DNA of 57,365 nt, counting the filler, from Stramenopiles sp. TOSAG23-6 (Eukaryota), in assembly GCA_900128565.1 (NCBI GenBank). It is 3 parts of 3 records of this genome, joined end to end, with 100 filler letters (N's around TTAATTAATTAA, not from the genome) between each part and the next. Parts side by side here need not be neighbours in the genome. Positions count along the whole stretch, not along the records: positions 19,223 to 38,295 come from LT636056.1; 2 more parts are not named here. One strand, 5' to 3'. This document shows, in pieces, positions 1 through 54,824 of this stretch. The translations under genes were made by a program, and so were the position numbers. The notes beneath the pieces were generated by a model. It was not told the DNA's origin, ran no database searches, and was given only the letters and a program-made list of their open reading frames with translations. Every line of letters begins with the position of its first letter. Position 1 is the stretch's first letter.

Positions 1-110
1 AAAAATAGTGCATAGATCGATTCAGCGAAAAAATTTGTTTTTTTTTTCGACCCGGTACCGGGTATCTCGTATTTCAAAATTAAATTCTTTATACTACGAG
101 AACAATACAA

Positions 111-3609: not shown

Positions 3610-3667
3610 AAATATTTTTATTATTATTCTGAACTCGCCCTTATTATATTTTTAAATTTTAACATTA

Positions 3668-9600: not shown

Positions 9601-12600
9601 CGACATCATTCCATGTCGCTCCACGATCTCTTGTAATCGAAGCGAGATTGTTAAAATACATCCTATTATCCCACTCTTCTGCCACAGATCTTTTATCATG
9701 ATGAATTTCAACATCAGCTTTTGGGAAGAATTCGTGTTCAGTAATCTTGTGAAGACCAACTAGCTTCCCACTAGGAGTATCAGAGAGAGCTTTATTGACC
9801 AATTTGTTATAGACATTATTCTTTTGAAGAGCTTCCTTTGTTTCAGTCCGCAAACCATCAATTGGTGACCAATATGGAACAAGTAATTCGGGCGAATCTG
9901 AATCTTTTATATCGTTTTCGACAGCGAATGGACATTCGATAAGTGCAAAATCATAAGATCGAATGCTGCCAAATGGGATGTTGAGTGTCACAATTTCATA
10001 TTCACAAGAGGATGGAACAGCTGGTACATTAAAGAATGGAGCTTTAGGAGTATATGAGTCACATCCAGGGTCGTACTGTTTATGGGTTTCCATCAATTTA
10101 CAGTAATTTTCAACATAATTATCACAATCAACTGCGTCGCTGTACGTTGCAGCAGCGCTAATGCATGTTTGATGCTGACAAGGTGTACCGAATTTATCTG
10201 CACTAAAAGCAGAGTAAGGCTGAATGAAAGGCTCAAGTCTGTGATTTTTACAAAAGCCACAGCCTGTGAAATCTTTTCCAAAGGAACCTTCAGCAATAAA
10301 CGTTTGTTCATCCGAATAGCTCTGACATTTTCCTGAAGCAGAAACATTCATGCAACACATTTGACATTCTTTTCCAGGGTTAGGACACACGAAATTCGAT
10401 TCTATGTAAGTACAATCCTCCGAGCACCCAGATGCTGGATTGCCCCCGTCATCGCATCTCTCTCCATATGTTACTACTCCATCACCACATACACTGAGAT
10501 TGCGACAAGCGTCGGATTCCCAAGCCCCTTCATCATTACAAAAGTCAATGTAGCTTTCTGCACACTGCAAAATATTTTCTACATAAAGAGATCCTTTTTC
10601 CTTTTCACACTTCGATTTCATTTTTGCTAGAACAGAACCATCTACAATCACCAATTTGGAATCTTTTTCGGGTTTATCTACCAAAGTTCCATTTTTTTTC
10701 ATCTCTTCAAAATGCCAGGAATCTTCGTTTGGTCTAACGAATCCTTGTGTTGCACTTTCTCTAAGTACACTTTTATGGAAAATTTCACAACTCCCCTCAT
10801 TTGCATCAGAAACTGAAGTGCTAAAAACTTCAATACAAGAATCAAGTGTACATGGATCTACTTTGTCGCTTCTTGTTAACCAATTTTTATCAAATGAGCA
10901 ACTGTCAAGACATCCAGGGTCCTTGGGATTTGCTTTACAGTAAGTGTAAATGGAATCAACACACATCTCTTCACTGTGATTCTCATGCTCATCTGTATCG
11001 CCTAGACTCAAGTTTGTGTCATGTTCATATTGACAATCAAGTAAATCACAATACATTTTCAAACCTGGGTCTTCTTTTTGATCTTTACTTCGAGAATACT
11101 TATTCAAACAGTCACCTCCTTTATTATTTATGTTCCCATCATCTTTCACGTTGTTTTCTTCTCCAGCATTTGGTTTTGGTGATGGCGTTGGTGTTTTCGT
11201 GTTTGGTTGTTCTGCAAGCATACGCTTATGCTCCATATGATTCCATTTGTATAACATTCGACGATGTTTCTGCTTAGTTTGTCTCTCGGCAGCTATCAGA
11301 AAGCACGAATCATCTTCCATACAACGCTTTGCTTCTGGCAAGCATTTTTTTGCACTGTCATTGGATCTCGAACTTTTGACTAAAGTGCATAGTGCATAAC
11401 ACTTTCCGAAAGCTATTGTTTCTTTTGAGCACGTCTTACTTGCATCATGAAAACATTCGAAATCATCAAAAGAATCACCTTGTTTGTTGCATATTTTTTC
11501 GCATTCAAAATCCAACTCTGTTTCAGATTTAGGATCGCTGGTTGCTGGCATATTATTATTTGGAAAGTCTAAGCCACCATCAGGTTCTTCAACATAACAT
11601 GGCTTGCACTGTCTGGAGATACAACCAAAGAAATCATCCCAATTACCACCTTGTTCTGTTTTATCTCTGAATTCAGGAATAGACGTCATGCACGCACTTA
11701 CGTGACAAGTATCTTCGTTGCAACTTTCTGGGCTACCTACTGGACAGCAACTAAAGTTTAGGGCTTTTGCAAGTGAATCGGCACGTGATGTATCCGCACC
11801 TCCAAATTCTTTGTTCTTTTGATCATTAATACAAGTTTTCAGTGCCCTTGCTACAGGGAGAAGCCTACTGTCTTCCACACTGAGTAGCTCAAGCCAATGA
11901 AATTCACCAAGACATTCAGCTTCATCGTTACGATTAAATTCCATACAACTTGCATACTGATCAGGACACCATTGTTTGGCTTTGTCCTTTGATGGCATAA
12001 TCGTGTTCATAAAATTACAACATCCTGACCCGCATTTATCTAACTTACTTTCACACTTCCGATCTTGTTTCATTAGTTCAATCCAGTCATTTGTTGATCC
12101 ACGGTTTCTATCAAAAGAATTAAATCCTAACCTTCTTCCTTTTTTATTTTTGGATATACTTTCCAAACGTCGATGTCCAACTTCCTCCTTGGGTTGAAGA
12201 TCGCTTTCTTTTGTTTTATCGAGTTCAATTTCTACAGTTTTTAACGATGCAAGATTCTTCACTTTAGTATGCAAACAAGCAGGATGTATTGTGAAAAAAA
12301 ATATTTTACAATTTTTTTGTTAGGTACAAAGTTTTGCACAAAAACAAATATTTTACATTCAATTTTGAAAACGTACATCAGATCTACATGTTTTGAGTTT
12401 AAAGGATTCAAAGATATTCCAGCCATAATGACCACATTTTTCGTTTTGACAAACACTTTTATCTGTAAATGCACACTCTGAACTATCGAAATTATAATCG
12501 CCTCGAGCTACTGTTTTCATAAAGCGAGAGCAACCAGTTGGCGTACATGAATTGTCCTTTTTACAAAATTGTTGAACAGCGTGAGAGCACACAGGCCCTG

Positions 12601-14960: not shown

Positions 14961-15385
14961 AATATTTTCAAAGAAAAAATATACTCTATGATTTTATGAT
15001 CTCAGATCTTTGTTCTTGCGTTTAGCAAAACACATGAGGAAACTATTCAAAATGTTCTTAAATTTTCAATTTCAATTGAGTTTTTCCAAGAAAGTAAAAT
15101 GAAAGTATAAAAGTATCGTAACATTTTGGAAATGAAATATTTTGTAATATGTATTACGTGTTATATATCGATATGTATGAAATATATGTACAACTACTAC
15201 TTGTCATTGCTTGTATTGAATATCTTTTTTATTTCATCAACAAAGAGACAAATACAGAGAAAACGCTCTCTATAAGGCTCTATAAATGATTTTCAAAAAA
15301 AATACAAATTTTATCATTCAGTCTCGATAAACAAGTAATATTTTTTCGTCAATGCATACTATTTCTATATGAACAAAAGTGAAAG

Positions 15386-16031
15386 TTAACTCATATTTTC
15401 TGAAAGCCACTTAAACGCGGTTTCAAGTCCAGCTCCAGTTGTAGCCGTGGAGGGCAAAACGATACACTTTCTATCACCGCAATTTCTATTGGTTTGTAAT
15501 ATATATAGTATAATGAATAATATGGTAAGATTTCAAAAGAAATAGAATATCGCAAATTAAAAAATAAATATCTGAAGAAAAAATAACGTACCTCTCCATT
15601 TCGAAAGCAGATTCCATTTCCGCAACTGAGAGAGCTCCGGGCATATCCTGCTTATTCGCTAGAACCATGATTGCGGATCCTGACAATTGATTATCTGAAA
15701 CAACACCCACAAATTCATCCCTCGCTTTTTGGATTCGTTCTCTATCACTTGCGTCCACAACATAAATTATACCCTGAGTTCCTGTGTAATAGTGACGCCA
15801 ATAAGGCCTTAATCGATCTTGACCACCAACATCCCATATATTTAGGGTTAGCCTTCCTATTTTGACAGTTTCTACATTGAATCCAACCGTTGGGGTAGTC
15901 GAGTGAGTTTCACCGCTATGCATTCGATACAGTATAGTTGTTTTCCCCGCGTTGTCCAGACCCACAAGTAAGCACCGACGCTCGTTTCGATGCCACCATT
16001 CTTTAATCATACGACTCAACCTTTGCCCCAT
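15386..16031 (-). CDS. ARF/ARL small GTPase, 179 aa; exons 16031-15592 and 15485-15386
   Basis: MG N-terminus, GLDNAGKTT, PTVGFNVE, WDVGGQD, NKQD. Exon 2 supplies STATTGAGLETAFKWL. Confidence 0.95.
15486..15591 (-). other. Canonical GT-AG intron, 106 nt
   Basis: ag|GTACGT...AATAG|a restores the ARF C-terminus. Lacks the family TACCTAAC core. Confidence 0.9.
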
Positions 16032-17587: not shown

Positions 17588-19049
17588 TCAGGCTAAAGCA
17601 GGCCAATCCGTCGAGCTTACAATTGAAGTCTTTTGCGAAGTGTCTCTTTTCTTTTCGAGTAATTTTCTTTGTCTATTTTGCTTTGTACTTTCTTTCGCTC
17701 GACTCCGCTGTTGCGAGACATCTTCCACCATTTTAGAAAACTTTTCTTTGGTACTTTCATCTTTTTCTAGTTTTTCTACTGATTGCAACAGATTAGTTGC
17801 TTTAGCGTAAGCACCAATTTCTAAAAGTTTCGGTATATTTAACATTGCCAATTGAGTTTTGACGACGCCACTTAATCTAACAGAATCGACAAATTTTGGA
17901 TTTAGTTTAATAGCATCATCCAATAGAATCTCCGCTCCCAGTAAATCATCTTCAGATATCTTCTGTGTTGCTAACTTCACCAATTGTGTTACAGCAGAGT
18001 TAGCCGATGATTCAAATGTATATATTGTCAAAAGACACGAAATTACAAAAAAAACGTTAGGTATAAAATTTCGTATGAAAAAATAAATAAATTTGAAATT
18101 GAAATTGAAAAAAAAATAAAACATACATTCTTCAATTGAGAATGATTTGGTGACAGAGATAAACCACCAAGAGCTGATAAAGCTGCTTCAATCAAATCAC
18201 CTCTACTGAAAGCGTCGTTACTACGATTCACAAAATCATTTAATTCTATTTCCCAATCGTGGCGAAGTGTCTGCGAAAGTTTTACCACAGCCTTGAATAC
18301 ATCAAATGTACCATCAGGATTAATAATTCCAATACAACTCATTTTGATTCTTTTACCTATTGCTTTTCCCATCTCCCTCCGCTTCAATGCATATATAATA
18401 GGGGTATCGTGATCTTTTGAGTATTGAATAATTTCACTAACACACTTATCAAGACCGGAAGAACCCTCATCAATATTTGTACTAACAATCAACATACGAA
18501 GTTTTCCATTCTTGGCACAACGGTGAACTTCTCTCATACCAAGTACAATTCTTTTTTTCTTTGAATTTATTGTCGATTTTGAACTTAATCTTGCTCGTTC
18601 ATGAAAAAAAAACACCTTTTGTAAAAGTTCGATGACCAATTTGTTTAATTCTTGTGATAATTTTTGTTTTACATATTCACGAACGCCCAAAATATTAGGC
18701 GTTCGAGAAATATGTTTTTCAATAGATGAAAGTTTTGAGTATATATTTGAACCAGATACTTTTTCAAGGACATTTTTAGCATTCATTGTTTCCGTATTTT
18801 GAGTATCTTTGGGATCTTTGGGATCTTTGGGTAAAATGTCATTCTTCTCATTCGCGCAAATAATTTCATCTGAAGATTGTTTTGTGTTTACATTTTCATT
18901 ACTATTTGTATCTTTGCTCATACGATTATTACGAGTTTCTTCTTTCTTCTTCATATTCTGTTTCAACTGTTTCCTTCTCTGAGCTTTCTTTTTTGACTCC
19001 TTTTGTTTCCTTTCGATATTTTGTGCTTCCTCAATGGCAAGTATTTGTA
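17588..19049 (-). CDS. SECISBP2: SECIS-binding protein 2-like (L7Ae domain) with TPR-like tail; 5'-truncated by gap; exons 19049-18127 and 18019-17588
   Basis: REYVKQKLS...KKRIVLGMREV...GLDKCVSEII...PIIYALKRREMGKAIGK matches the SBP2 RNA-binding region. Confidence 0.8.
18020..18126 (-). mobile_element. Introner-like repeat intron, GT...AT, 107 nt
   Basis: aat|GTATGTTTTA...TTTATACCTAAC...ACAATATAT|aca ttt gaa. Joins two overlapping out-of-frame ORFs; there is no AG in the intron. Confidence 0.75.
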
Positions 19050-19122
19050 ATGTATTGTGAAAAAATATTTAAAAAAAAAATCGTTAGGTACAAAATTTCG
19101 TACGAAAAATAAATTCGAAATT
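19050..19122 (-). mobile_element. 3' part of an introner-like intron, cut by the assembly gap
   Basis: TTCGTACGAAATTTTGTACCTAAC...CACAATACAT directly upstream of the SBP2 exon. Confidence 0.8.
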
Positions 19123-19222
19123 NNNNNNNNNNNNNNNNNNNNNNNNNNNNNNNNNNNNNNNNNNNNTTAATTAATTAANNNNNNNNNNNNNNNNNNNNNN
19201 NNNNNNNNNNNNNNNNNNNNNN
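19123..19222. other. Artificial 100-nt scaffold linker
   Basis: Ns flanking TTAATTAATTAA (stops in all six frames). Confidence 0.95.
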
Positions 19223-19300
19223 ATATTTCAAAAANAAATCGTTAGGTACAAAATTTCGTACGAAAAAAAAATTCGAAATTGAAAGAAAAATAAAACATAC
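19223..19300 (-). mobile_element. 5' part of an introner-like intron, cut by the assembly gap
   Basis: cat|GTATGTTTTA...TTCGTACGAAATTTTGTACCTAAC. Confidence 0.8.
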
Positions 19301-20405
19301 ATGTTGTTTCGCTGTTTGATTTTGCCCAAAGCATGATTGTAATCTCATCATTGATACCCAAATCTCCCGCAGTCATCAATTGTTGATTTATAAGTTGCTT
19401 TCCACTTGAAAAATGAAACGAAGGACGATTGCCATTATCATTACCATCATTAAATACAGGCTTTTGGGCGTCTTTACACTTTTGCGAACAGTCAGCTTTA
19501 GCCATACATGCTTTAAATTCTGCGTTGCCAAAAGATCCAATATTATCGTTGTCATGTTCTGAATCCAAGGGTAAATGTATAATAGGCATTTTCTCGGTCC
19601 TACCACTGGTGCTGTCGAATGCAACATAGCAAGTTTGTGGATTTTTTTTATCATCAGCTGAATCGGAATCATATTGTGAAAAACAGGTCGTTGGTTCTGC
19701 GCTGTTCGAACCATCAAAGAGATATCCGATACCGCTACGATTATCTCCAACTCTATCTCTGACTGGATGACTTGAAACAACTGTCGTTCCATCGGGCGCA
19801 GTGTATGATTTCGTCCCACTTGTCCCTTCACAGTTGCGTTGTGGACACGAGAGGTCAATTCTGCCCATACCTGGAAACTTTGCTTGTTCAAAAACGAAAT
19901 ATCGTTTGGAACACACATAATGAGCTGCGGTATTCGAACAAGATTTTGTTAGAACAGACTGACCATAAATATAAAGACATTTTGAAGTTCCTTCAGTAGG
20001 TTGACCTGATCCCCATGGAAATTCCGACCCTGTTACTGAGGTACCATCCGTCATTATATATTTCGCTTTTGTATCGCAGTCTGAAGTACAACTTCCACCC
20101 ATCCAAACATCATGTGTTCCACTAATTTTGTCAGTGATTTCATTCACTTGATTTTGCGTATGCGGAACAGCAAGTATCATACCAGCATCGATACATTTCT
20201 CACTTGCTTGTTTCCACGTTAAAGTTTCTTCAACCACAACGTAACCATCATTGCTTGATGATAATCTACGCCTCGCGTGCTTTCGTTGGTGTGACGAATC
20301 AACTTGTGTATTACGTTCAGCTGGTGGTATCTTGGCGCAAAACACCATGGAGCTGAGTAATAAAGTACAAAGTACACTTTGTACAATCATCATATTCATT
20401 TTCAT
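19301..20405 (-). CDS. Secreted C-type lectin domain protein, 3'-truncated
   Basis: Signal peptide; LTWKQASEKC...LA...VWMGG...WGSGQP...C...C...YVC is a CTLD pattern. ITIMLWAK may begin a LamG-like domain, then intron and gap. Confidence 0.75.
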
Positions 20406-20724
20406 CTTTATTGCAGAAAGAAATTATCTTATACGTCGTAATCATTAGTTACTGGTTATTACCGGCTACTTTACAAACAAAAACAAGAAACGGAAAAGCC
20501 AATTGGTATTTTTTTGAAACGGAAAAAAAATGGTTTCATCCAATGTGTACCAATTTAGTACAAACGTAGAAAAACCGAAAGTCTCCGAATTTCTCAAATT
20601 ATTATTTTTGAATGTGTGACAAAAAAGATTTCTTCGATAGAGAATATCGATATGGCGAATTTTATAAATTTTACTCTTCAATAATTACGAATGTATATTA
20701 CATATTCTAATTTATTATAGTCAA

Positions 20725-23700
20725 ATGCTGTATTGCCATCATGATATGTATTTCTCATTAGCAATAGTTACAACAATATTGGCATTTGCTGGAAATTCTC
20801 GTGGAACTACTGAAATATTTGGTCCACATTTTACAGACAACTTATCTTCGGAAGAGACATCAACGTATAGAATAAATGGTTCTTATTTAGAGGAGCTGGA
20901 CGAATCATCTAATAGAATGTGTTATAGTGAATTGTCTTCAAATGGTATTGATATTGTTCCTTCAAGTAGATTTGATTATCTATTACAGGAACGATTACGT
21001 TTCCTAGGAAAGAAACGAGTAAAAGACCTGAAAGATCCAGCTGTAGCATCTTTGCCGAATGTAAACGTGATTTCCCCCAAAGTATATCCTTTGTGGTTAG
21101 AATTGTCAGTACCTTTAAGAAAAAAGATGTTATCTGCCGGTGATGGTGATCGAGATGGAAAGAATAAGAATTTCCCTATGAAACCTATACTATCTCAGTT
21201 ACGTGAAAGGTACGATGTGAGAGAGTTATTTCAAGGTGGAAGTCATGGCGAAGTTTGGCGAGCTATCAAAAGTGTTTATAACCATGAAAATCATTCAGAC
21301 AATTACACCAAAGATAAAGCAAGAAATGCTGAACATGTAAAAGAAATATCATTTATACTCAAACGAATGTTTCTAGAAAATGTATGTCTTTAACATGAAT
21401 TTTAATTTGTTTTATAGAAAATTTTATACCTAACAAATTTCGAATTTCAAATATTTCCCCAAAAAACATGGAGAGTATGTAAGACTTGCAGGATTAAGAG
21501 AGATCTATTTTGGTGAATTGCTCAAGGGAAAGCCACACATTGCAAGATTTGTAGAATTCTTTGAAACAAATAGTTTTGAAGAAAAATGTAATGCAGACCC
21601 AATTAATAAAAATACCAACAATCAAAATACAAACAATCCTAATAAAACAAATACAAACAATCCTAATAAAACAAATACAAACAATCCTAATAAAACAGAT
21701 ACAAACAATCCTAATAAAACAGATACAAACAATCCTAATAAAACAAATACAAACAATCCTAATAAAACAGATGAAAAAACAAAATCAGATTTGTGGCTAG
21801 TATTTCATGATGAAGGGAGATCTCTTCGAGATTTTTTATATAGTCGTCATGAGTTAAGCAGTGGTGCCGTGTATGTATGTTTTATTTTTTTTTCAATTTC
21901 GAATTTATTTTTCATACGAAATTTTGTACCTAACGGGTTTTTTTGAAATAGTTTTCCAAAATACATGAACCATCATCTTTATGGCGGGAACTCCGAACGG
22001 GTAAAGGTGGTTTAAATGTTCTTCGAGGTATTTGGTTACAAATTACCGAAGGCGTTGCACTTTTACACCAAATGGATATCACGCATCGCGATTTGAAACC
22101 TTCAAATCTTATTATTTCTCTACCCGAAGATGTCTGTTTTATTTTTTTTCAAATTCTACTTTTTTTTTCGTAGGAAATTTTGTACCTAACAATTATTTTT
22201 TGAAATATTTTTCCAAAATACATGGTTCAAAACCTATAGTAAAAATAGCAGATTTTTCATCTGCCGTGAATGGTCATTCTTTGAAGTTTCTGTATGGAAT
22301 GAAAGGACCAAGTCAAGATGAAGAAACTGTTGAATATCAGCCTCCAGAAGTTTTATTCTCTATTGATATTTCAGATACATATAAAGAAGACGAAACCACA
22401 AAACAATATGATGAAACCACAAAAAAATATGAAAAGAATAAACAGGAAATGAAAAGTGGTTCACCATACTTTAGTGATAATCCAAAAACATATGATTTAT
22501 GGACTCTCGGAGTTATTTTCCTTGAAATGATTTTAGGTACACAGCATGTTTTTGCCGTAAGTGCGAGGACATTTGCTAAACTAGATCATAAAATGAGACA
22601 AGAGAAAAGATCAGATGCTGAACGAAGACAGCTTCTAATACTCACTGGCCTTGCGGAATGGTGTGTGTTCCCAGAACCAAATGCATCATCTTCTGAATAT
22701 AATACAATGAAAGATAAAAACAAAATCTACCTTCCAAAATCGTGGTCATCCAATTATAAACAAAGTCATCATTCGAATAAATTTCATTCCCGGGTTAAAA
22801 CAAGTGGGACAGCTTTGATTAGTCAAGGTGAATGGTGCGGCCTTGAAGCATTTAATCGAACATTACATCGGCGAGATCCTCTCGCTGGTATGTACGTTTT
22901 CCTTTCATTTTTAATAGAAAATTTTGTTCCTAACGAATTTCAAACTACATCAGCGAGATCCTCTCGATGGTATTTACGTGTTCATTTTATTTTTTATAGA
23001 ACATTTTTTACCTAACAAATTTTAAACGTAAAACATATTGTTTCGTAATACATTGGTTTGGGATATGAAAGTCGATGGGCTGTGGATGTACGTTTTCAAA
23101 ATTGCTTTTTTTTTATTTTTTCATACGAAATTCTGTACCTAATGATTTTTTGTAAAATATATTTTTTTACAATGTATCTTTTGTGGCGGTTACTTCGATG
23201 GCATGCGTGGGATAGATTGCCGGTGGAACTTGTCCTTCAACATGCATTTTTTGTTGGTCCTTATACTTGTGATGCTGATGATGCGTGTACAGGTAAAGAA
23301 TTTGCATTACCTGTACGTTTTCATAAATAATTTCAAATTTATTTTTATTTTTCATACGAAATTGTGTACCTAAGATTTGTTTTTTTGAGATGCTTGTTTT
23401 CATCATGAATTTCAAATTTGTCATATTTTCCAAAATTCATGGTGAACGCGACGAATTTGTGGTAGCATTACAAAGCAATTCTCTTGATAATTTGAACCCA
23501 TCAAAATCTTTTATGGAGTCAGAAATTGGTACACGAAATCATCCGATTATTCCAGTACCATTAGGCAAGGAAAATACAGAAATAAATAAAAAAGTAGAAA
23601 AGGTAGATAAAATTTTTGAAGACTCATATAGGGACCGACCTATACAACCAGAAAAATTCTGTTGTGCTTCTTGTGGTCGTTGCTTTGATAGAGCCAAGAG

Positions 23701-25331
23701 GTACGTTTTCATGATGCATTTCAAAAACGTTTTTTATTTTTTTTTTTTTGTATGAAATTCCGTACCTAACAATTTTTTTTCTAAAATATTTTTTTATTAC
23801 ACATTTGTGACCGGCACGTTATTGCAAGACGCCATAATGAAGATAAAGATCTTCCGTCATATTGCTGGCATAAACATGAGCATAAAAAAGAAATGTTTTG
23901 GGAATGCTCCACAAATATAAAACGAAACGTAGGTGGTCTTGAGAATACTCGATTATATGGCTGGTGTGGAACGCCTGGACGTCGAAATTATGGCATGGAA
24001 GACTTTGCGTCTGTTGGCTACTTAAATATAAAAAACGTCGTATTTTCAAATGAAAACAAAGTTGATTGGTTCGCTTTGTTTGATGGGCACGGAGGTAATG
24101 GTACTGCTTCATGGAATGCTGGCTTATATAATGATAGAAGTAATAATGTAGATAATGAATATTTAGGAAAAGAGGATGATACGGTCAATAAACACAGTCA
24201 AAATCTTTCTAAAACAAACCATGGTTTACACGTACATCTTGCTGCTACAGTAGCTAATTTTTTATTACTCCCGAGCAGTATTTTAAATACAAGTGTTGAT
24301 GATATTTCAGATTTGAGTGAAAATTCAATGGAATATTTGAATGATGTGAATGAAATTCATGAAATAACAGAACAACACAAGGGTCGCGTTTGGTGGGAGA
24401 AGGAACTTCTTGAAGATGCCATCAGTGAAGCATTTGATGCAGCTGATGAAGAAATATTGAATATGGTGGAGAATGAAAATAATGATGAAATAAATGTACC
24501 TCAGATTATAGGAAAGTCTGGATCTACTGCAACTATGTATGTTTTATTTTTTTTCAAATTCGAGTTTTTTTTCGTACGAAATTTTGTACCTAACAAAAAA
24601 CCATTTGAAATATTTTTCCAAAATACATATTACTAATGGGTTCTGAAACTTTAATGATAGGAAATGTTGGTGATTCGACTGCTATTTTATGTTGTGATGA
24701 AAATGATGAACCTATTGTTTTAAGCGAAGACCATTTACCCAGTCTACCGTCTGAACGATTACGTATTGAAAGTATCCCTGGTGGTCATGTACGTTTTCAT
24801 GATGAATTTCGAATTTATTTTTCATACGAAATTTTGTACCTAACGAATTTCGAATGTTTGAAATATTTTTTTTAATGCATGTTCATTGTCCTTCACTATC
24901 TGATATACATCATGGTTTTGGAACTTGTCGAGTTCAAGGGCAATTAGCGGGTACATTTTTATCATTAATTTCAATTTTGTTTAGTAGAAAAATTCCGTTT
25001 CTAACAAATTTCGAATGTAATATATTTTCACAAAAGATCAGTCTCACGATCACTTGGAGATTCCTCTTTGAAGCCTTACGTCTCTTCCTCTGCGTTTACT
25101 AGTCAATATGATTTCAAGGGATATGAAGAGTTTGCTATTATAGCTAGTGATGGACTATGGGAATCGCTATCTTTTAAACAAGCTGTAAGTCTTGTGCGTG
25201 ATTCTTTTTATGAAACGAGTCATCTCCGAACTGGTGAAACCTTATTTGAGGGGGCAGCAAGAAGGTTAGTTGAAGAAGCATACTTTAGAGATAGTGGAGA
25301 TAATATTGCAGCTTTAGTTATAGCTGTGTAA
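20725..25331 (+). CDS. Protein kinase - C2H2 zinc finger - PP2C phosphatase fusion, ~1191 aa, 11 exons
   Basis: After removing 10 family introns: GGSHGEVWRA, FILKR, HRDLKPSN, IADFSSA, YQPPE, YDLWTLG; CASC-x12-H-x5-H; GRRNYGMED, LFDGHGG, SGSTAT, NVGDS, GQLAVSRSLGD, IASDGLWE, DNI. Exon lengths sum to 3576 nt, a multiple of 3. Confidence 0.88.
21382..21469 (+). mobile_element. Introner-like intron, GT...AT, 88 nt
   Basis: aat|GTATGT...TATACCTAAC...AAAAACAT|gga. An in-frame GAG 6 nt downstream is an alternative acceptor. Confidence 0.75.
21625..21770 (+). repeat. Coding tandem repeat, 24 bp x ~6 (TNNPNKT[N/D])
   Basis: Repeated aatacaaacaatcctaataaaaca inside the kinase domain. Confidence 0.95.
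21875..21966 (+). mobile_element. Introner-like intron, GT...AT, 92 nt
   Basis: tat|GTATGTTTTA...TTGTACCTAAC...CCAAAATACAT|gaa, in frame to HRDLKPSN. An internal TAG 15 nt upstream is also in frame. Confidence 0.8.
22132..22223 (+). mobile_element. Introner-like intron, GT...AT, 92 nt
   Basis: gat|GTCTGTTTTA...CCAAAATACAT|ggt links HRDLKPSN to IADFS. No AG is in phase with this donor before DFS. Confidence 0.85.
22892..23053 (+). mobile_element. Introner-like intron, GT...AT, 162 nt, with internal duplication
   Basis: ggt at|GTACGT...TAATACAT|t ggt gives RDPLAGIGLGYESRWA. Confidence 0.75.
23088..23177 (+). mobile_element. Introner-like intron, GT...AT, 90 nt
   Basis: gat|GTACGT...TGTACCTAAT...ACAATGTAT|ctt. 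No AG inside. Gives WAVDLLWRLLRW..DR (kinase subdomain XI). Confidence 0.8.
23313..23440 (+). mobile_element. Introner-like intron, GT...AT, 128 nt, composite
   Basis: cct|GTACGT...CCAAAATTCAT|ggt. Includes a second 5'-half copy from about 23389. Confidence 0.7.
23701..23804 (+). mobile_element. Introner-like intron, GT...AT, 104 nt
   Basis: ag|GTACGT...CGTACCTAAC...TTACACAT|t restores exact C2H2 spacing. Confidence 0.85.
24537..24628 (+). mobile_element. Introner-like intron, GT...AT, 92 nt
   Basis: at|GTATGT...CCAAAATACAT|a gives the PP2C motif SGSTATILLMGSETLMIGNVGDS. Confidence 0.88.
24789..24880 (+). mobile_element. Introner-like intron, GT...AT, 92 nt
   Basis: cat|GTACGTTTTCAT...TAATGCAT|gtt. 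No AG in the intron; in frame to RVQGQLA. Confidence 0.85.
24951..25041 (+). mobile_element. Diverged family intron ending in canonical CAG, 91 nt
   Basis: g|GTACAT...TTTCTAAC...CACAAAAGATCAG|tc gives GQLAVSRSLGD. Confidence 0.8.
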
Positions 25332-25491
25332 TGAATAAACAAATACAAAAAGGATATATATATATTTACTGTATAAATTTATTAGTTACTTTTACAGACA
25401 TCGTTGTGTTTTCATAACTGAATACGAAATACAACAGTACTGGTATACTTTATTGTATTAAATGTATTTCATATCCAATTGTCACGTTTAT

Positions 25492-25563
25492 TGTGCGTAT
25501 TTCAATCAAAAACTCAAAGCTTATACTTGCCCTTTAGAGTGGTTGATATCAATATACGATACA
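25492..25563 (-). promoter_or_regulatory. SECIS element (type II-like) in the 3' UTR of the PDI-like selenoprotein
   Basis: Sense: CGTAT at TGAT ATCAA cc ACTC t AAA GGGC aagtataa GCTT t GAGT tt TTGAT TGAA ATACG. This gives helix I, a TGA/GA core, helix II, unpaired AAA and an apical mini-stem. Folded by eye. Confidence 0.75.
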
Positions 25564-25634
25564 TTAAAACATATGTCTCAGATAAATATAACATGTAGTT
25601 AAACTTGAACAGTTAAAATTTAGTTGTAAAAACT

Positions 25635-26213
25635 TTAGTGCAGATATATTTGTTCTAAAATGTTTAATCGTGCGAGAAGCCACAGCTTTAATTCCATTTT
25701 CAATTTAGCATTTTTCATTCCCTGCAAACGATCGATTTGTGACTTTATTGCAGTTTGTCCTTTGGCTTCCATCTTATCTATGTACTCAATTTCACGATTA
25801 GTGCATGTATCCCTTTTACTTACGTTACATGCTACAACTAAGTCATCAGCGACAAACTTTTTTAGATCGTGAAATGAACGACCACCAGTATATTTTTTGC
25901 CTTCTGTCTCTCCTTTTTGAAAGGAAAGCAATGTTGGGAAACCTTTGACCTCGTGAATAGAACAAAGATCGGTTTCTACTGTACAATCAACATCTGCTAT
26001 TAGGACAGAATATGCTGTGTAATAATCACTTAAAGCCTCCCAATCCGGCTTCAGCTTTTTACAATGACCTCACCAAGGAGCTTGAAACTTCACAAAAGCA
26101 CCGCCTTCAGATTTAGAAAGAGTTTGATCAAAATTTTTAGCAGTTAGTGAAATGGATTTTGCTGTAGCCATCGTCACTTGAACAAACACTGCAAATATCA
26201 ACGAACCCTGCAT
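25635..26213 (-). CDS. PDI-like thioredoxin selenoprotein, 192 aa, in-frame TGA at 26072-26070
   Basis: Signal peptide, then AFVKFQAPW-TGA-GHCKKLKPDW...IADVDCT...EVKGFPTL...YTGGR in one frame. Missed by the ORF track apart from its last 98 aa. Confidence 0.92.
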
Positions 26214-26437
26214 CTTTTCGCTGATCCCAGATCTGAAATCTATTGTGATTTGATATAGATGCGTAGATATGTACTACCAAAAAACAACAAAATTTAAATT
26301 TTTCCGTTAAAAAAAAAATAACGCCACCGAACCTCTCCTCTATCCAAGAGTCGTATTTTGTATTATATATGTATATGATGTATATCATTCAGATTCAATA
26401 GTAAACACATGAATAAATTCTTCAAATAGTAAAAATT

Positions 26438-26992
26438 ATGGGAGAAATGAATCTAGTTGTGAATCGAGAGAGAACGCTTCAAAGAAATCGAATTGGGATT
26501 AGAACATATGCTAAACGCCCTGATATTACAGAGCACCATTCGTTTCTTATGGGTTGTGACACGTTTGGCTTATCTTCTTTACTCGGAATCCAAGCAGTAA
26601 ACGAAAAGACAACACTCAAAGAATTCCGCACAATTTTTGAAATCAATAAAGATAGAGGAATGAATCGCCGATCAACAATGTTTTGTGAGATATTGCAGCT
26701 CATGCAGTCTGTGTCAAATCCATTTGAATATTCTGATAAAAAAAAGTATACAGAATATAAGTTTGGTGTTATTCCTGTAATATCACCAACATCCTTGGAT
26801 ATTCCATTTATCATTCCTCGACGAGAAGAATCTTATATTACATGTATGCAACTTCCAGTGATACAGTCATATCCTACTTTGGTCATAGTGCCAATAACTC
26901 AAGTAAATCCATATACTGGACAAGTTGAAGGCTGGGAAGAACGCAACGAAAAAAATTATAATAATTTTGAATTTCCTCTAAAAGTAAAATGA
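26438..26992 (+). CDS. Hypothetical protein, 184 aa
   Basis: ATG-initiated ORF divergent from the PDI gene; no recognised motif. Confidence 0.6.
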   Translation: MGEMNLVVNRERTLQRNRIGIRTYAKRPDITEHHSFLMGCDTFGLSSLLGIQAVNEKTTLKEFRTIFEINKDRGMNRRSTMFCEILQLMQSVSNPFEYSDKKKYTEYKFGVIPVISPTSLDIPFIIPRREESYITCMQLPVIQSYPTLVIVPITQVNPYTGQVEGWEERNEKNYNNFEFPLKVK

Positions 26993-27089
26993 AAAATAGA
27001 TTTTTAAAATAAATTAGATTGTTACCCATTTTATTACTCAAGTTGTACAGTAGTAACTTCTTCTCTCATTTTGAAAAAGTAGAGGGGGT

Positions 27090-27832
27090 TCACTTTTCTT
27101 TTGGTTTAAAATAAAGGTAATAAAGAGCTATACCACCCCACATTAATAGAAGAAAAATAACAAGCGAGTTATATAAAAAATATGTCAAATTCGAAATTCG
27201 TTAGGTACGGAATTTGGTACGAAAAAAAAAATGAAATGTATGATGAAAACGTACATAATATACCAGAATTTAGACGTGAAGCCCCCAAAATATTTTCCCT
27301 TTGATTTTTTATTTCCTCGCTTCTTTGAAGGTTTTGAAGGGTTTACATCGACGGCCACAGAAATTGGATTTTCTACTTCATTCTTTTGATTATTTTCTTT
27401 TTTTGATCCTTTTGATTTTTTACGGCGTCGTTTTTTCTTACGTCCTTTTTTGGGGACTTTTTCGATTTTTTCTGTCTTCTTTGAGTCTTTTGAGTCTTGT
27501 GGTAACGAAGTATGTTCTCCATGTTGTGGACTGTCTGGAGCATGATCGTGACTGTTTCTGAGCCAAACTTCAGAAGAATCTAAACCAACAGCAATTTTGT
27601 TCTCTTTTATCCTGGTGCTTTCTGCAACATCAGGATTAACCACCTCGTGAGCTTCCACTGCTACTTTGTTTTTGTTGTCTTCAACTCGAACGTCACTCTT
27701 TTCTGTTGGTTCTGTGGTAGATATCGCTGATTTTGCAACTGGAGTAGCACTTTCCTCTTGTACGGGCATAGTTGATTCTAAAGTGTCTGAATTATCTTTA
27801 CGGCGGGAAAACGCTCTCTTCAGCTTTTTCAT
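27090..27832 (-). CDS. Lys-rich tail-anchored membrane protein, ~214 aa; exons 27832-27255 and ~27156-27090
   Basis: Removing the family intron yields a C-terminal TM segment KFWYIIFLLLMWGGIALYYLYFKPKEK. Confidence 0.6.
27157..27254 (-). mobile_element. Introner-like intron, probably GT...AT, 98 nt (acceptor uncertain)
   Basis: at|GTACGTTTTCATC...CCGTACCTAAC; 3' end diverged. GTTAT|t gives the TM frame and there is no nearby in-phase AG. Confidence 0.65.
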
Positions 27833-28025
27833 ACTAATTGTGTGCTATCCTTGGATACGAAAGGCCAATATCATATATTAATAACGGTCGAAAAAACAAG
27901 AAAAGAAAAAAAAAAACCGCCGGAACCATGGGTACCGGGTAACTACCTACATGTCAACTGAAACGAGTAACTGTAAATCAATTTTTCCTTTTTAGTCATT
28001 CACAACTACACCCTGGAAACAGGCA

Positions 28026-31000
28026 ATGTCGTCCCCAGGGCATGGGAAATTGTCTCATGGCCCCCGTATACTTAAACGGGGTCATGCTGCTCGATTTTCT
28101 CCAAAGATTCGTCGTGAAGTAGTTGACTTGAAGCAGCAGTTCAAACAGCAACGGCAGCAAGCCGTAAGCTCTGCAGTAATTACATCGACAAAAAATATTT
28201 CAGCTGGTCCTCAAATTAGACATAGGGAAAAGAATAATAGAACTCATACATCAAACCATAGTCCCCAACATAGTATACTAATGGCTGCAATTCGTGGTCT
28301 CCGTGCTAAAAAAGTCAAATTAGATCAAAGAGATCCTAAAGTGATAAGAGCAGGTGACGCAGTAAGAGCCGCATTTCGTAATTCGGAACTCTGGTATGAC
28401 GGTGTCATTACAAAGGTAAATGATGACCATACGTATAATGTTCGATATGATGATGGTGCAAAGGAACTAAATAAACCTCGAAAATTCGTTAAAAAACTTC
28501 GTGTACAAAACCCTATAGATCCAATAGAAGATATACAGCAGTACAACAATAATTCTCTAGAAAAAAAACAACGTGAAATGCTACAAAAAAATAAAAAGAG
28601 ACGAAACACAAGAAAAATAGATCATAGTCAAATAGAAAGTAAGATTGATCCAGCAGGTACTAGTAGTAGTAGTGATTATGAAGGTGATATTTCTACTCCA
28701 TCGCGTGCGAGAAGCCGATCAAAAACTAGGCATCCGCGTACTAATAGAAGTCATTCAAGAGAGTCAAAAAAGAGTGAAAATATTGATATACGTCCGGGGT
28801 CTACTCCTAGTAATACAAATGTTTGTAGATATGATAAATATGGGCCTCCTAGTCGAATGGCTGGGAAAAACGAGGTGGATCAAAAACGGAACGTACCAAA
28901 ACGAACAACATCGTCAAAAATAGATATAGTTAGTAGAAAAGTTTGGGGGGATACTAGTCTCAATACAAATGAAAATGAATACATTGCAGAAGAAAAAATT
29001 GTTATTGGACCTTCTAGTTCATTTCGTTCAAAAGAAAGTACCTTTGTACCATACTCTAGATCGGAATTGATAAAACTTCGAAGTAAAGCCTTAGATTTAC
29101 ATAAAAAAGCATCAAGTAGCACAAAGAGTAATCAACTTGATCTACCGATTGATTTAGCATTTTGTAGATTATCTTGGAAACCTCAAGAAATACTACATCT
29201 ATCGAAATGGCGCGAAGTTGCGACAGATGCAGCATTACATAGAATATTACGGGCATATCCCAAGTCACCTCTCGGTTGTGGTCCCTCGGAGCTTTTTCTT
29301 TCAAATTGTGAGCATCTTTCTTATAGGACAGTCGAAACAATAGCCACAAATTTATATGCATCTCCACCTTTATCAGAAGAACTTACTTGGGGTCCAAACA
29401 AAAGGAATCCTTGGGAACCATACACTTCGACTTATTCAGGTTTGAGGACCATCCATGCCCAAAATTGTCATTCTATTCGTTTTAGATCTAAATTAAAAAA
29501 TATAGGTTTAGGTGCAGCTCAAAAACAGCGGCGTTATAAAGGAGAAGAGTATTCTCAGAAAGCTACACGGATATTGGGTTCTGGATTATGTCGTGTTCAA
29601 TTTTTGGACCTCAGTGGTAATATTAAACTACTTGACTCTGATATACAAGTAGTTTCTGAGACAATGCCGATGTTGAAGTATTTGTCTGTGGCCGGTTGTA
29701 AGAGCATAGGAGATCGATCAGCGAAATTCATTGTTGCTGGTTGTCCACGTTTAAAAGCAATAGATTTTTCTGGATGTAATAACTACAATGATGGTCACGG
29801 ATTAACAGATGTTGGACTTAAATTTCTTGTAGGAGATCATGTTAATAGCGGTTTGCCTTTGACTGTTCTTAGAATTGCTGATTGTTTTGAAATATCTGAT
29901 ATTGGGTTTCAAGCAATTGCTGGTAGTAAAAGTGCTGGTAACACATTGAGAACGTTAGATGTAAGCGGGTGTAAACGCATAGGAGATCAAGGTGCAAGGC
30001 ATCTAGTAGAGACGCCACTGTTCCGCGGGGGTCTCATGAAACGCGCAAAAGGTCTACAGGCTTTAACATCACTAGATATATCATTTCTATCAGAAATGAC
30101 AGGGCTTGCTGTTGCATGGATTTGCGCTGGATGTCCGCAACTTCAACGAGTTACAATGATAGAACTTTCAGCATTAGATGATAATGGGTGTGATTCTATT
30201 GGGTCACTTCGTGCGCTCTCGGGCATTTCATTATGTAGGTGCTCGTCGGTGACGGATGCGGGTGTAGTTGGGATGGCAAATATAGTTCGCAATCGATGTG
30301 AAGTAGAAAGAAAAACACCGTATGTACAGGAAATTAATATTAGCGGGTGTAAGGCACTTGGCGATGCCTCAGTTGCAGCCCTAGGTGCCGCATTTGGAAA
30401 AAGTTTACTGTGGGCTGATATCTCTGAACTTCATGGATTAGAAGGACCTGGACTTGCAGCATTTATTAAGAAGTCGTCAAATCTTTTACACCTTTCATTA
30501 CGGCGGTGTTATAAAGTTGAAACCAGAGCTCTCAAATATATTGGTAGAGAGTGTCGTCGTCTAATATATCTAGATATTTCACACTGTATTGGAGTTACAG
30601 ATGATACTATAATCAGTTTACATAATTTGAAACATTTGCGCGTATTAGATCTCACAATGTGTACAAAACTAACGGATTCAGGTGTCGGGTATGTCCCGAA
30701 TGATGGTCTTAAACAACTCTTTCTCGATGGAATTAGTTTATTAACTGATGCTGGTATTACTACTATTGCAGAGAAATGTCATAACTTACGTGTGCTGCAT
30801 TGTGTTGGTTGTAAACTTATTACGCCTGTCTCCCCAGTCATTCTTTTCAAGGAATGTAAAAAGTTACGAGAGTTAAATGTCCTTGGTTGCCCAAATATTC
30901 GACCTTCCCTAATAGCATCACTTGCGGCACTACGACCACGGACAGCAAGTATAAATGAACCAGACAAAAAACTAGACCTTAGTACTATAGATCACCGATC

Positions 31001-37994: not shown

Positions 37995-38051
37995 GTACTT
38001 GTTATTAATTCTAATAATCTAAATAAATTAAAATTGAAGTTTATTTTTTTT

Positions 38052-38295
38052 TCACTCTGGAAAATAAATACCCGAATTTTCTGTCTCTGTCGCATTATCA
38101 CTGTTTTCTTCTATTGTTGTATCAACGGAGCTCACATTATCTAAATTTTGTATCGGAGTGCTGTCGTCTCGGCGACGGAGTTGACGTCTAAGAGGAGCAG
38201 GTGTCACATCTGGGACATCTGGAAAATTCACAAGAGGTAATGTATCGGAGGATTCTGGGAAATTCACAGCAGATGTTGTATCGGAGGATTCTGGG
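38052..38295 (-). CDS. Possible 3' end of a gene truncated by the gap
   Basis: Open frame running from the gap with a repeated PESSDT/VNFP unit (duplicated tgtatcggaggattctggg). Confidence 0.4.
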
Positions 38296-52400: not shown

Positions 52401-54824
52401 CACGAATTCCAGCAGTTTTACAGAGTTTCACCGCACCTGGTACTTGAGGTCTAGCAGGATCAATCATAGCAAAAAGACCAAGGAAGTTAAGTGGTGTAAA
52501 TGAATCTTCGTGTGGTGGCATTTTTGGGTTTTGAGGGGCATTTCGGTCATTTCCAATTGGAAAGTTAGCGTTGTCTTCATCATACTCGAAATCTTTACCG
52601 TACTTTCGTGGAAGCTCAAGTTCACAAAAGCCAAGAACACGAAGACCATCTTCTGCGCATTGTTCCTGAAGAGCAATGATTTTCTCCTTTTCTGCTGCGT
52701 CGAAAGGAACAAGGTCAGCTTTACCAGAACCATTATCTTTCCAAATTTTATCGCACCTATTCCAAATTCTTTCTGGTGCTCCTTTCATCACAAGTAAAGA
52801 TGATTTCTTCTCATCATCCCAATGAATACCAACTTGGTATTTATTTTTAGAGTTAAAAGGTATTTGGGCAATTCGTGGATATTCTTCGTTGCATTTAGTC
52901 ATATAATTAGACAGAGCTCCTTCAGTATCCAAGTTACCGTCAGCGTCTTTAGAATTCATCATCTGTGCGAACTTAGCTAACGCAGATTCAGTAGCATCAC
53001 CAAGTGGTTTCCAATTATATTGTTTTTGTTTACGACCATCAATGTCGACGATAGTCATAAATGGTTTTGGACGACTGGTATCAGCGATACTTAGCGCAGG
53101 GTTATTTGGATCCGGTTTTTTATGGTATAATGTTGTATTATCCCATTTAACATTATTGCACAATGTGGCACAACGCAAGAGCTTGTCAAAGGTTCCTCTT
53201 TTTTTAATTGATGCAGCGGTAACAGTATCGGGTTTGTCAGCACGGGAACCAGTATCGGCCTGGTATGCACAATTATCAAATACAACTCGTTCAACAGTCA
53301 TTTATTGTGAAAACAAAAAAGTGTGAAAACATTTGTTAGGTAAAAAACAAATTACGAAAAAAACATTTAAAATTCGTAATGCAAACATACATCATATTTT
53401 GAGTCAAAGTTCCAGTTTTATCCGAGCAAATACAAGAAGTTGATCCGAGCGTTTCGACACCTTCAAGATTCTTTACGAGAACATTATTATTCGCCATTCG
53501 ATGGGCAGTTAATGCCATACACACAGTTACAGTCGCAAGTAAACCTTCAGGTACATTAGCAACAATAATTCCAATCATGAAAACAAGGTTTGTAATCATT
53601 TCTGTTTTGATGATAATCCAACCGAAAAGAAAAAATGAAATTCCCAAAATGAAAGCAATCGACGAAACTATAGTGACAAAGTGATGAATTTGTTTGTTAA
53701 TAGGCGTCTGTACAGTCTCTGTGACGGTTGTTAGAGAAGCAATACGACCCATAACAGTGTCATCACCCGTTGATACTACAATACATTTCATCGATCCTTT
53801 AACGACCTCCGTACCAAAGAATGCAAGATTTCGTGTTTCAAGAGGATTCTCATCAGTGCAAGAAGTTTCACGTTTTACGGGTTCAGCTTCACCAGTAAGC
53901 GATGCATTGTCAACTTCAACAGTTCCTGATACTGATAAAACACGGACATCAGCAGGTACTTTATTTCCAGCCTTCAACTTAATGATGTCTCCAGGGACGA
54001 GCATCGTTGCGTTAATTTCCTTAGGTTGGCCATCACGAATAACAATTGTTGTTGATGGAAGCATATTCTTAAAACTGTCCATAAGATTAGATGATTTTCG
54101 TTCCTGGCAATATCCAAAAACACCAGTGAGAAACACTACCGCAGCAAGAACTATACCTAAATAAAGATTATCTTGTTCTTTTTTCAAACCAAACCCAACG
54201 AAGCACAAAGCGGCACCACCCCATAGTAAAAGTGAAAAAAATCCCGTCATCTGCTCCATGAATTTGATGAATTCACTCTTTGTCTTTGGTGGAGTAAGCT
54301 TATTTTCACCATATTCATTGATTTTCTCGAACCACAACTGTTCACTAATTCCCTCATTCTTCGACTCCACTAACACGAAACCACCATCAGAAGTCATATC
54401 AAACTCAAAGTGACTTGCAAGATCATTTCTGACATCCCCAATGTCCATCGTATGCCATTTGAGCTTCAATTCCTTCTTCAAGTTCCCCAAATCCTCAACT
54501 TCTGCACCGCCAAAGCAAGGACAGGAGAAGTTTGCCTTATTCGAGGTTTTCGTATTTTCTTCTAACGATTTCGCCCCTGTTGAGTTGAAAAGATATAAAG
54601 TCAATGGTACACATAATGAGCTACATTGGTAAAGATAAAGAGTATAATTAAAAGCACTGATGTACAAAAGTTATGAGAGATAATTCATTCAAAAATATTT
54701 GAACACAAAGGCTGGAACACTTACTCGAATCAATCGTAGACACCATCCCTTTCTGTTTAACAGTTGCGCCAATAACAGCGATTTCCGACGACTGACTTCG
54801 CGAAACATTGATTCTATCACTCAT
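49441..54824 (-). CDS. Na+/K+-ATPase alpha subunit-like (P2C), ~1714 aa; exons 54824-54725, 54576-53391, 53299-49441
   Basis: VANVPEGLLATVTV, CSDKTGTLTQN|MMTV, MKGAPE, TGDGVNDAPAL, LKKSIAYTLSSNIPEI, C-terminal NTYY. Confidence 0.95.
53300..53390 (-). mobile_element. Introner-like intron, GT...AT, 91 nt
   Basis: atg at|GTATGT...TTTACCTAAC...CACAATAAAT|g act gtt. No AG in the intron; restores DKTGTLTQNMMTV. Confidence 0.92.
54577..54724 (-). other. Canonical GT-AG intron, 148 nt, unrelated to the family
   Basis: tcg a|GTAAGT...TCAACAG|gg; phases match. Confidence 0.85.

Follow-up and report, generated by a model that had tools for sequence, protein, structure and literature searches.

A co-oriented family of introner-like repeats with apparent GU…AU ends in Stramenopiles sp. 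TOSAG23-6

Introners, known from Micromonas, Aureococcus and many other eukaryotes, are short non-autonomous repeats in which the repeat is the whole intron, and which occur in many co-oriented copies in unrelated genes (PMC9860276). Some introner families carry terminal inverted repeats and target-site duplications, and the duplication can lend a splice site, the element then being removed together with one of the duplicates (PMC9860276). Here we describe a repeat family of this kind in a 57,365-nt stretch of the genome of Stramenopiles sp. TOSAG23-6 (assembly GCA_900128565.1; three joined parts, together called the window). Like introners, its copies fill whole introns in one orientation in unrelated genes. 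Unlike the introners of PMC9860276, where the parts considered deal with splice-site recruitment and make no mention of non-AG ends, the family ends in YAT at all 19 readable 3' ends, and its direct repeat is only 2 nt (AT), compared to the 3-9 bp cited there. The reading that we favour, and consider probable though by no means firm, is that the family consists of introners which the spliceosome excises from pre-mRNA with GU…AU ends, YAU replacing YAG.

The paper on the introners of the parasitic dinoflagellate Amoebophrya, which also reports canonical motifs for those of Aureococcus, describes non-GT-AG borders, 3-5 nt direct repeats overlapping the borders and inverted repeats at the ends (PMC7789003). 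The family of the window shares with them the repeated non-canonical introns, the ambiguous cut, the inverted ends and a marine protist as the host. Still, Amoebophrya introners have no conserved terminal dinucleotides, their inverted repeats of 8-20 nt form hairpins, and a mechanism distinct from ordinary splicing has been proposed for them (PMC7789003), while the family studied here has a strict GTAYGT, a CTAAC box, no stable fold and one defined 3' triplet. In the tunicate Fritillaria borealis, non-canonical introns (95% escape GT/AG) are recognised by duplicated, divergent U2AF subunits (PMC13326754). Introns without the AG end are common to both organisms, and in Fritillaria they are removed by the major spliceosome (PMC13326754) with a change of the machinery of the kind that an initial annotation of the window, made from the sequence alone, had proposed for this family. 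However, Fritillaria is an animal with both intron ends changed, while the protist of the window keeps the 5' GT and differs only in the last 3' base. Single-cell genomes of uncultured marine stramenopiles have been described, by automated prediction, as having 'few but long introns' (PMC5269757). A literature search of incomplete coverage retrieved neither GT–AT introners nor the motif of the family, and an earlier description in a genome paper is possible.

Yeast-type U2 introns have the layout GUAUGU…UACUAAC…YAG. The family resembles them (as generally known) in its near-identical 5' hexamer, in a branch box with one inserted C and in a branch-to-3' distance within the yeast range. It differs from them in that the terminal G is replaced by U, and in that the functional frame bypasses AGs located 5 nt before or 4 nt after the border.

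A profile built from 11 aligned clear copies, with which both strands of the window were searched (the seed copies match by construction), yields 23 matches at E<0.01, of which 17 are on the plus and 6 on the minus strand, the same numbers as counted in the initial annotation. The element at 24789..24880, to which that annotation refers, coincides exactly with one of them (P9; below, P and M denote elements on the plus and minus strands, and carets mark the borders of the removed piece). All of them belong to one family of about 90 nt with the layout (AT)^GTAYGTTTT…TTTTGTACCTAAC…T-rich…CAMAATACAT^. Pairwise identity of the 15 full copies is 59-91%, with a median of 70%, and the blocks conserved across them are GTA.G, a TTTT/T run, TTTTGTACCTAAC and the terminal CAT. 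The 8-mer TACCTAAC occurs 18 times in the window, whereas shuffling leads one to expect 1.14 (and 4 at the most in any shuffle); 16 occurrences lie inside family elements, while the remaining two (632 and 9151) are bare 8-mers without other element parts, fitting the chance expectation. One composite intron (P4) accounts for two of the 23 matches, M3 and M4 flank a scaffold gap, and P11 begins at another gap.

According to the map of open reading frames (ORFs) and the frame analysis, each of the 23 matches lies on the sense strand of its host gene, with eight host genes involved (0.5^23 = 1.2e-7). This complete co-orientation, as well as the fact that similar copies each fill a whole intron of unrelated genes, from the 5' site to the 3' border, are features of introners. 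The absence of intergenic copies (0 of 23), also reported initially, holds but is weak evidence, since intergenic DNA, as estimated from the ORF map, makes up no more than about 10% of the window (~2.3 copies expected, P(0) ~0.09). Antisense copies inside intact genes, named initially as the counter-evidence to look for, are represented in the window by no full copy. The next-best profile match, at 617-646 (+), is 30 nt long (E=0.021) with the core-like AAAATTCATACCTAACGAATTTTGAA, and lies antisense within the uninterrupted GYF-domain ORF 114-1670 (-); this similarity is fragment-sized and may be due to chance or to an old fragment. Scanning of JGI metagenome contigs with one 20-mer of the element gave no matches.

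When the G of GTAYGT is taken as the 5' border, the T of the family-aligned terminal AT as the 3' border, and the longest open frame on each side, the GT…AT cut joins the flanking frames in 17 of 17 two-ended copies (chance 1/3 each, (1/3)^17 = 8e-9). A single open frame after removal was found for 12 of the 12 copies with correctly placed borders in an initial set. Moreover, the ten exon lengths of a kinase-PP2C gene (20668-25328, plus strand) chain in phase without a break, and exon phases also chain across four introns of a Stn1-like gene and two introns of CDC45.

Conserved protein motifs give the same borders in the case of M6 (53300..53390, minus strand; 91 nt, gat^GTATGT…TTACCTAAC…CAATAAAT^gac), which splits the DKTGTLTQNMMTV motif of a Na/K-type P-type ATPase. 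The cut rebuilds DKTGTLTQNM^MTVERVVFD, solved Na/K-ATPases have DKTGTLTQNRMTVA at the same place, and QNxMTV is present in 13 of the 14 closest database relatives among the matches listed, the remaining one diverging after DKTGTLT. An empty site is found in a GC-rich metagenome contig with 77% identity (L001, the sole locus found in a protein-guided scan of metagenome contigs), where an uninterrupted ORF reads CAG AAC ATG ATG ACC GTC, that is, QNMMTVDRVVFD; the window has ATGAT, 91 nt and GAC, compared to ATGATGAC in the relative. This relative, the closest one found for the ATPase, has no intron throughout its open frame of 1,546 codons (50-4687). As it is intron-free and GC-rich, the introner invasion seems to be specific to the AT-rich lineage of the window. 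The CDC45 exons match the Pfam CDC45 profile collinearly (454-543, 551-593 and 597-622; the last two weakly, E 0.14 and 0.15, with no other family found), while the short CDC45 exons gave only chance matches in PDB. In protein database searches, the gene-7 exon had no match at E<=1e-20, and the best identity for the ATPase was 76%, with no product of the window's organism among the matches. Conserved motifs fix the element borders to the base; the removed piece has an exact length and position, save for a 2-nt slide where AT is repeated, and its removal restores the original coding sequence exactly.

P9 may serve as an example of a typical copy. It lies in the PP2C part of the kinase-PP2C gene and comprises 92 nt (cat^GTACGTTTTCATGATGAATTTCGAATTTATTTTTCATACGAAATTTTGTACCTAACGAATTTCGAATGTTTGAAATATTTTTTTTAATGCAT^gtt), with the layout cat^GTACGTTTTCATG…TTTTGTACCTAAC (24837-24844)…TTTTTTTTAATGCAT^gtt, that is, the 5' site GTACGT, the 8-mer TACCTAAC and the end TGCAT. 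Its removal joins …IPGGH^VHCPSLS… in the sole open frame, and there is no AG within 45 nt downstream of its 3' border.

Among the 19 AT-type copies that retain their 5' end, 18 have the 5' site GTAYGT, in agreement with the donor assigned in the initial annotation, and one has GTCTGT; these are GTRNGT-like sites of the major spliceosome (the family-like P10 has GTACAT). The distance from the A of the branch box to the 3' end is 33-45 nt for 16 of 17 copies (median 36) and 67 nt for one composite copy, so that most copies fall within the roughly 30-50 nt estimated initially. In these 16 copies the box has a core CTAAC, CTAAT, CTAAA or CTTAAC, comparable to the branch motif CTRAY, making it a putative branch point. 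The extra C of the box had been noted along with a possible change in U2; the CTAAC core is indeed there, but the extra C needs no changed U2, because CTAAC alone is a normal branch core, and because P10 has TTTCTAAC.

The last triplet is CAT in 16, TAT in two and AAT in one of the 19 copies with a 3' end (M5 is outside this count, and P10 ends in CAG), and none of these 19 readable family ends has the terminal AG of U2-type introns. Of 16 copies, 6 have their first AG downstream of the branch box in frame, as would be expected by chance (P=0.45), and another copy lacks any AG over 45 nt. In P14 (42065..42158, plus strand; 94 nt, cat^GTACGT…TACCTAAC…GCACAGCACAT^gac), belonging to a Stn1/RPA32-like OB-fold gene, use of the CAG 5 nt upstream of the border brings in a stop after 3 codons; with CAT^, 101 codons are open and include DLNLEAHHWLEVV, which we take to be the RPA32/Stn1 motif. 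In P13 (39013..39113, plus strand; 101 nt, aatg^GTACGT…TACCTAAA…ATACAT^gtag), one of the CDC45 introns, the TAG 4 nt downstream leads to a stop after 17 codons with loss of the CDC45 C-terminus, while the ACAT^ frame yields this C-terminus (profile 597-622). A simple rule of the first YAT after the branch was tried and fails, as earlier CAT, AAT and TAT triplets occur in the tails (e.g. CCAT in P8).

AG-independent splicing, suggested in the initial annotation, agrees with the 3' border lacking AG and with the nearby AGs being unused, but AG recognition as such is not lost, since the window contains GT-AG introns beside the family; the non-AG end is a property of the AT-ended family. The GT-AG introns number at least two, probably three or four. 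In P15 (42299..42396, plus strand; 98 nt, caa^GTACGTTTTGAT…TTCACATGTAG^ttc), which is only weakly family-like (E=8), TAG^ is the sole in-frame end, and ACAT^ would create a stop. P10 (24951..25041, plus strand; 91 nt, gcgg^GTACAT…TTTCTAAC…AAAAGATCAG^tct; E=2e-5) is family-like with a likely canonical end: CAG^ yields the PP2C motif RVQGQLA^VSRSLGD, while GAT^, 3 nt upstream, is also in frame and adds one Ala. Two introns outside the family have the 5' site GTACGT, one in an Arf-like gene (15479-15591, minus strand) with the end AATAG^, and the other in DnaJC11 (14911-15006, plus strand), where the end is probably TCTCAG^. The occurrence of GTACGT outside the family marks it as the general 5' site of the genome, in which AG-type splicing is retained.

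RNA and DNA contigs (not raw reads) were compared with the N-free stretch 19236-38295, and the following figures refer to the matches listed; X9 and X10 are sets of polyA-RNA contigs from two runs of one study, and X3 is a DNA metagenome from another sample. The DNA contig X3 record 9 (2,392 nt, 19263-21654) spans P1 and runs 37 nt into M3. X9 record 25 and X10 record 1 match 19300-20443 and 19300-20457, respectively, leave the genome at the first base of the M3 GTATGT and continue for 313 letters. These letters are absent from the window, so that one or more exons of the minus-strand gene 17591-20423 are concealed by the scaffold gap next to M3; a 30-letter loose end of the RNA at 19300 is not found in the window even with <=3 mismatches. 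The match of X10 record 2 is confined to the exon that separates P2 from P3 (21965-22129), with 5 and 124 further letters; it begins at 21965 and not at 21952, as the in-frame TAG of P2 would require. The match of X9 record 26 ends at 24534, just before P8, with 32 further letters. In a DNA metagenome, summed depth is in the thousands over element-bearing bins, compared to ~9 for unique DNA; summed depth is not copy number and is a sign of very many copies only, and neither the depth figures nor the parts uncovered by RNA were used as evidence.

The initial annotation missed the AT repeated before GT, and hence the ambiguity of the cut position. Where a 5' border is present, AT stands directly before GT in 15 of 19 cases, against a background of 9.4% (P ~1e-12), and with AT at both borders the cut slides by 0, 1 or 2 nt in these 15 copies, giving GT–AT, TG–CA or AT–AC. 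According to a hand tally, G directly follows the 3' border in 9 of 19 copies, against a background of 18%. The AT repeat may be a 2-nt target duplication or an AT^G exon preference of reverse splicing. The inverted ends of 5-6 nt, ATGTA(T)…(A)TACAT, and the AT direct repeat (15 of 19) are both very short and equally well explained by splice-site and exon preferences.

The excess of AT before GT speaks for a reading in which the same elements are removed at the RNA level with both cuts 2 nt to the left, as AUGUAYGU…AUAC introns of the AT–AC type, the downstream AT being exonic; where AT is repeated, the mRNA is identical either way. A(+1)…C(-1) is a known compatible intron-end pair for spliceosomes, and the aligner put the shared AT downstream (ends 22129 and 24534; start 21965), though by its convention only. 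The family shares non-AG ends with AT–AC introns, which are of the U12 type or, rarely, of the U2 type. We nevertheless regard such cuts as unlikely, mainly due to four copies: P6 (23313..23440, plus strand; a 128-nt composite that has a partial repeat inside it, cct^GTACGT…AATTCAT^ggt), P7 (23701..23804, plus strand; 104 nt, agag^GTACGT…ACACAT^ttg, with compatible phases 2+1 and the junction …DRAK S CDRHVIARRHNED), P13, and P17 (42953..43053, plus strand; 101 nt, gcgt^GTACGT…TACCTAAT…CAATGCAT^acc). Their 5' flanks are CT, AG, TG and GT, with which an AT–AC-type intron would have to start despite the intact GTACGT and AT end; because these copies keep both signals without a 5' AT, GT–AT is preferred. 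Moreover, the 5' site is neither ATATCCTT nor ATAAGT, the branch is far from the 3' end, and GTAYGT would sit at +3 to +8, against the U1/U6 pairing rules generally accepted for either AT–AC class.

Removal by the minor (U12-type) spliceosome, which is tolerant of varied 3' terminal dinucleotides, has some resemblances in its favour. By eye, TACCTAAC shares 6 of 8 positions with the usual U12 branch consensus TCCTTAAC, and TACTTAAC of P12 (38755..38847, plus strand; 93 nt, cat^GTACGT…GTACTTAAC…ATACAT^ata; in CDC45) shares 7 of 8; likewise by eye, GTATGTTTT shares 7 of 9 with GTATCCTTT, and oomycete relatives keep U12 introns. But the diagnostic CC at +5/+6 is absent from all copies, none of which has the U12-type 5' site RTATCCTT, the branch lies 33-45 nt from the 3' end rather than at the 10-20 nt typical for TCCTTAAC, and we know of no lineage with U12 introns as the main intron class, all of which makes this mechanism very improbable in our view.

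The non-AG 3' end and the short inverted ends ATGTAT…ATACAT, which could pair, are also what might be seen if the elements were removed from RNA without the spliceosome, by an endonuclease and a ligase or in a structure-guided manner, as in euglenid nonconventional introns. However, ten copies folded with the AT flank have Z from -2.79 to +0.41, only one of them below -2, and their ends are paired in 2 of 10, unlike the stable end-pairing of euglenid and Amoebophrya hairpin introns; in our reading of the alignment, +4 does not covary with -6. Given the weak folds and this lack of covariation, a structure-guided mechanism is not supported, and the conserved GTAYGT and CTAAC are spliceosomal signals, so that we give this explanation very little credence. 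Least credible of all is cutting at the DNA level (internal eliminated sequences or transposon excision), an assembly artefact or dead genes, because, even if the inverted ends with the 2-nt direct repeat resemble a transposon footprint and the window is a gapped scaffold, the 23/23 sense orientation is not expected for DNA excision, contigs of an independent DNA metagenome contain the elements (as P1 in X3 record 9) at places where the RNA contigs leave the genome, and the host genes are conserved with frames restored exactly.

Removal of the elements is strand-specific, which points to RNA. The spliceosomal removal proposed in the initial annotation is partly backed, mostly by inference: the 5' end is a conserved GTAYGT, the box has a CTAAC core, and the frames, the motifs, the intron-free relative and the RNA contig borders agree in placing the 3' border at YAT^. 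The involvement of the spliceosome, the box as the branch point, and GU…AU rather than slid AU…AC cuts are what we infer. According to this GU…AU model, a short mobile introner would spread into coding exons of many genes and act there as an intron, each copy bringing a yeast-like 5' site GUAYGUUUU, the branch box UACCUAAC (core CUAAC), a U-rich stretch and the conserved end …CAMAAUACAU. The spliceosome, most likely the major U2-type one, would cut at ^GUAYGU and form the lariat at the box, and the exons would be joined after YAU about 36 nt downstream of the branch A, with the pyrimidine at -3 and the A at -2 kept and the last base U in place of G. The element would be removed together with one of the two flanking AT dinucleotides. 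Its spread would probably be due either to a life as a tiny DNA transposon (inverted ends of 5-6 nt, ATGTA…TACAT, and an AT duplication of 2 nt) or to reverse splicing at AT^G sites.

Several observations weigh against the GU…AU model. To our knowledge, G(+1)…U(-1) is not a productive intron-end pair for the major spliceosome. An AT–AC parse is possible for 13 of the 17 two-ended copies, and an NN…AC cut of the same length keeps the frame in all 17. The branch box belongs to a repeat and is conserved as a part of it, so that its conservation alone is no proof of function. The RNA departures at 21965, 22129, 24534 and 19300 are known from the genome side, the far side at 19300 being absent from the window, and the contig matches listed contain no read-level junction, lariat or branch point. 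An Rfam scan of the window gave no family at the gathering score and no small nuclear RNA. Scaffold gaps have cost M4 and P11 their upstream ends and M3 its downstream end. Finally, M5 (27169..27254, minus strand; tat^GTACGT…TACCTAAC…GACATATTTTTTATATAA…) has several candidate 3' borders and is the sole copy misfitting the AT-end rule: in the region 27100-27254, the ATAT^ end gives a 9-codon tail, while the clear tail-anchor helix SLVIFLLLLMWGGIALYYLYFKPKEK, followed by a stop, is in another frame and needs ATA^ or TAA^.

Instead of altered machinery, the conserved tail of the element could define the 3' site for an ordinary spliceosome that still uses AG elsewhere. A broader version of the GU…AU model is, in our judgement, evenly balanced between being right and wrong: introners have spread widely, making up about 20 of the ~24 introns of the window, all readable copies are GU…AU beside GU…AG introns, and the second step of splicing or a dedicated 3'-site factor accepts a terminal U, choosing it by the branch distance and the …CAMAAUACAU tail and bypassing nearby AGs.

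The kinase-PP2C gene contains ten of the window's introns. Its phase-consistent chain of 11 exons at 20668-25328 apparently codes for one protein, in which a protein-kinase part (HRDLKPSN, KIADF) precedes a PP2C phosphatase domain. Besides the elements already considered, it contains P1 (21382..21469; 88 nt, aat^GTATGT…ATACCTAAC…AAACAT^gga), P2 (21875..21966; 92 nt, tat^GTATGT…TACCTAAC…ATACAT^gaa), with its in-frame TAG 15 nt before the end, and P3 (22132..22223; 92 nt, gat^GTCTGT…TACCTAAC…ATACAT^ggt), which lies between the HRDLKPSN and KIADF motifs. P4 (22892..23053; 162 nt, with the end TAATACAT^tgg) consists of two tandem element copies and a duplicated 23-nt exon piece; the region 22866-23053 is a tandem duplication of the form …cggcgagatcctctcgctggtat, element, cagcgagatcctctcgatggtat, element, in which the inner 5' site has decayed to TTACGT. 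The frame is kept only by removing all 162 nt, and parsing P4 as two separate introns was rejected, as it produces a stop. P5 (23088..23177; 90 nt, gat^GTACGT…TACCTAAT…CAATGTAT^ctt) has the 3' end TAT, and its phase was set by the exon-length chain, the automatic frame choice being meaningless after a 34-nt exon. P8 (24537..24628; 92 nt, ctat^GTATGT…TACCTAAC…ATACAT^att) has the junction GSTAT^ILLMGSETLMIGNVGDS.

On the minus strand, M1 (12284..12376; 93 nt, gat^GTACGT…TACCTAAC…ATACAT^cct) lies near the 5' end of a gene of ~3,200 aa. M2 (18020..18126; 107 nt, aat^GTATGT…ATACCTAAC…GACAATATAT^aca) ends in TAT; an end at ACAT, 4 nt beyond TAT^, was rejected, since the frame requires 18020. M3 (19224..19300; cat^GTATGT…TACCTAAC…) is the 5' portion of an element that a scaffold gap interrupts, and M4 (19050..19123; …TACCTAAC…CAATACAT^tac) is a 3' part after the gap. 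The gap itself, at 19123-19235, contains an N…TTAATTAATTAA…N linker between the two element halves. On the plus strand, P11 (38395..38449; …TACCTAAC…ATACAT^gga) is likewise a 3' part after a scaffold gap and precedes a CDC45 exon, the CDC45 homology beginning 1 nt after its border, and P16 (42520..42610) comprises 91 nt (aat^GTACGT…TACCTAAC…GTAACAT^att).

The copies are distributed unevenly: the kinase-PP2C gene has ten introns within 4.7 kb, a 10-kb ORF has none, and a 9.7-kb gene has one, near its beginning. The giant uninterrupted ORFs 27996-37991 (+; LRR, MORN and ankyrin repeats) and 3671-12319 (-), of 3,332 and 2,883 aa respectively, contain no elements, while the genic density elsewhere, ~0.45 elements/kb, predicts about four in each; the elements are strongly clustered in some genes. 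The genes of the window are eukaryotic (Na/K-type P-type ATPase, CDC45, Stn1-like OB-fold protein, DHHC, DnaJC11 and the kinase-PP2C chain), its pyrophosphatase is most similar to oomycete EF-hand–PPase–PH proteins (~50% identity over 88% of the query), and the sequencing runs containing the stretch are marine, all of which suggests a marine, stramenopile-like protist.

The terminal AG is among the most constant signals of eukaryotic gene expression, and the known large-scale exceptions (Fritillaria, Amoebophrya, euglenids, diplonemids) alter several signals together, which makes them hard to dissect. In the family described here GUAYGU, the CUAAC box and their spacing are orthodox and yeast-like, and the last base alone differs. 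The presence of AG-type and AU-type introns in the same transcripts makes the choice of the 3' site in the second step directly testable, as are an introner carrying its own 3'-site definition and a 2-nt insertion duplication serving as half of a splice site. Gene finders requiring GT-AG will break and mistranslate most multi-exon genes of this organism, including those of the P-type ATPase, CDC45, the Stn1-like protein and the kinase-PP2C protein. If the broader version of the GU…AU model is true, the family would be a natural example, defined by a single base, of a spliceosome that looks yeast-like in other respects but chooses its 3' splice site independently of AG.

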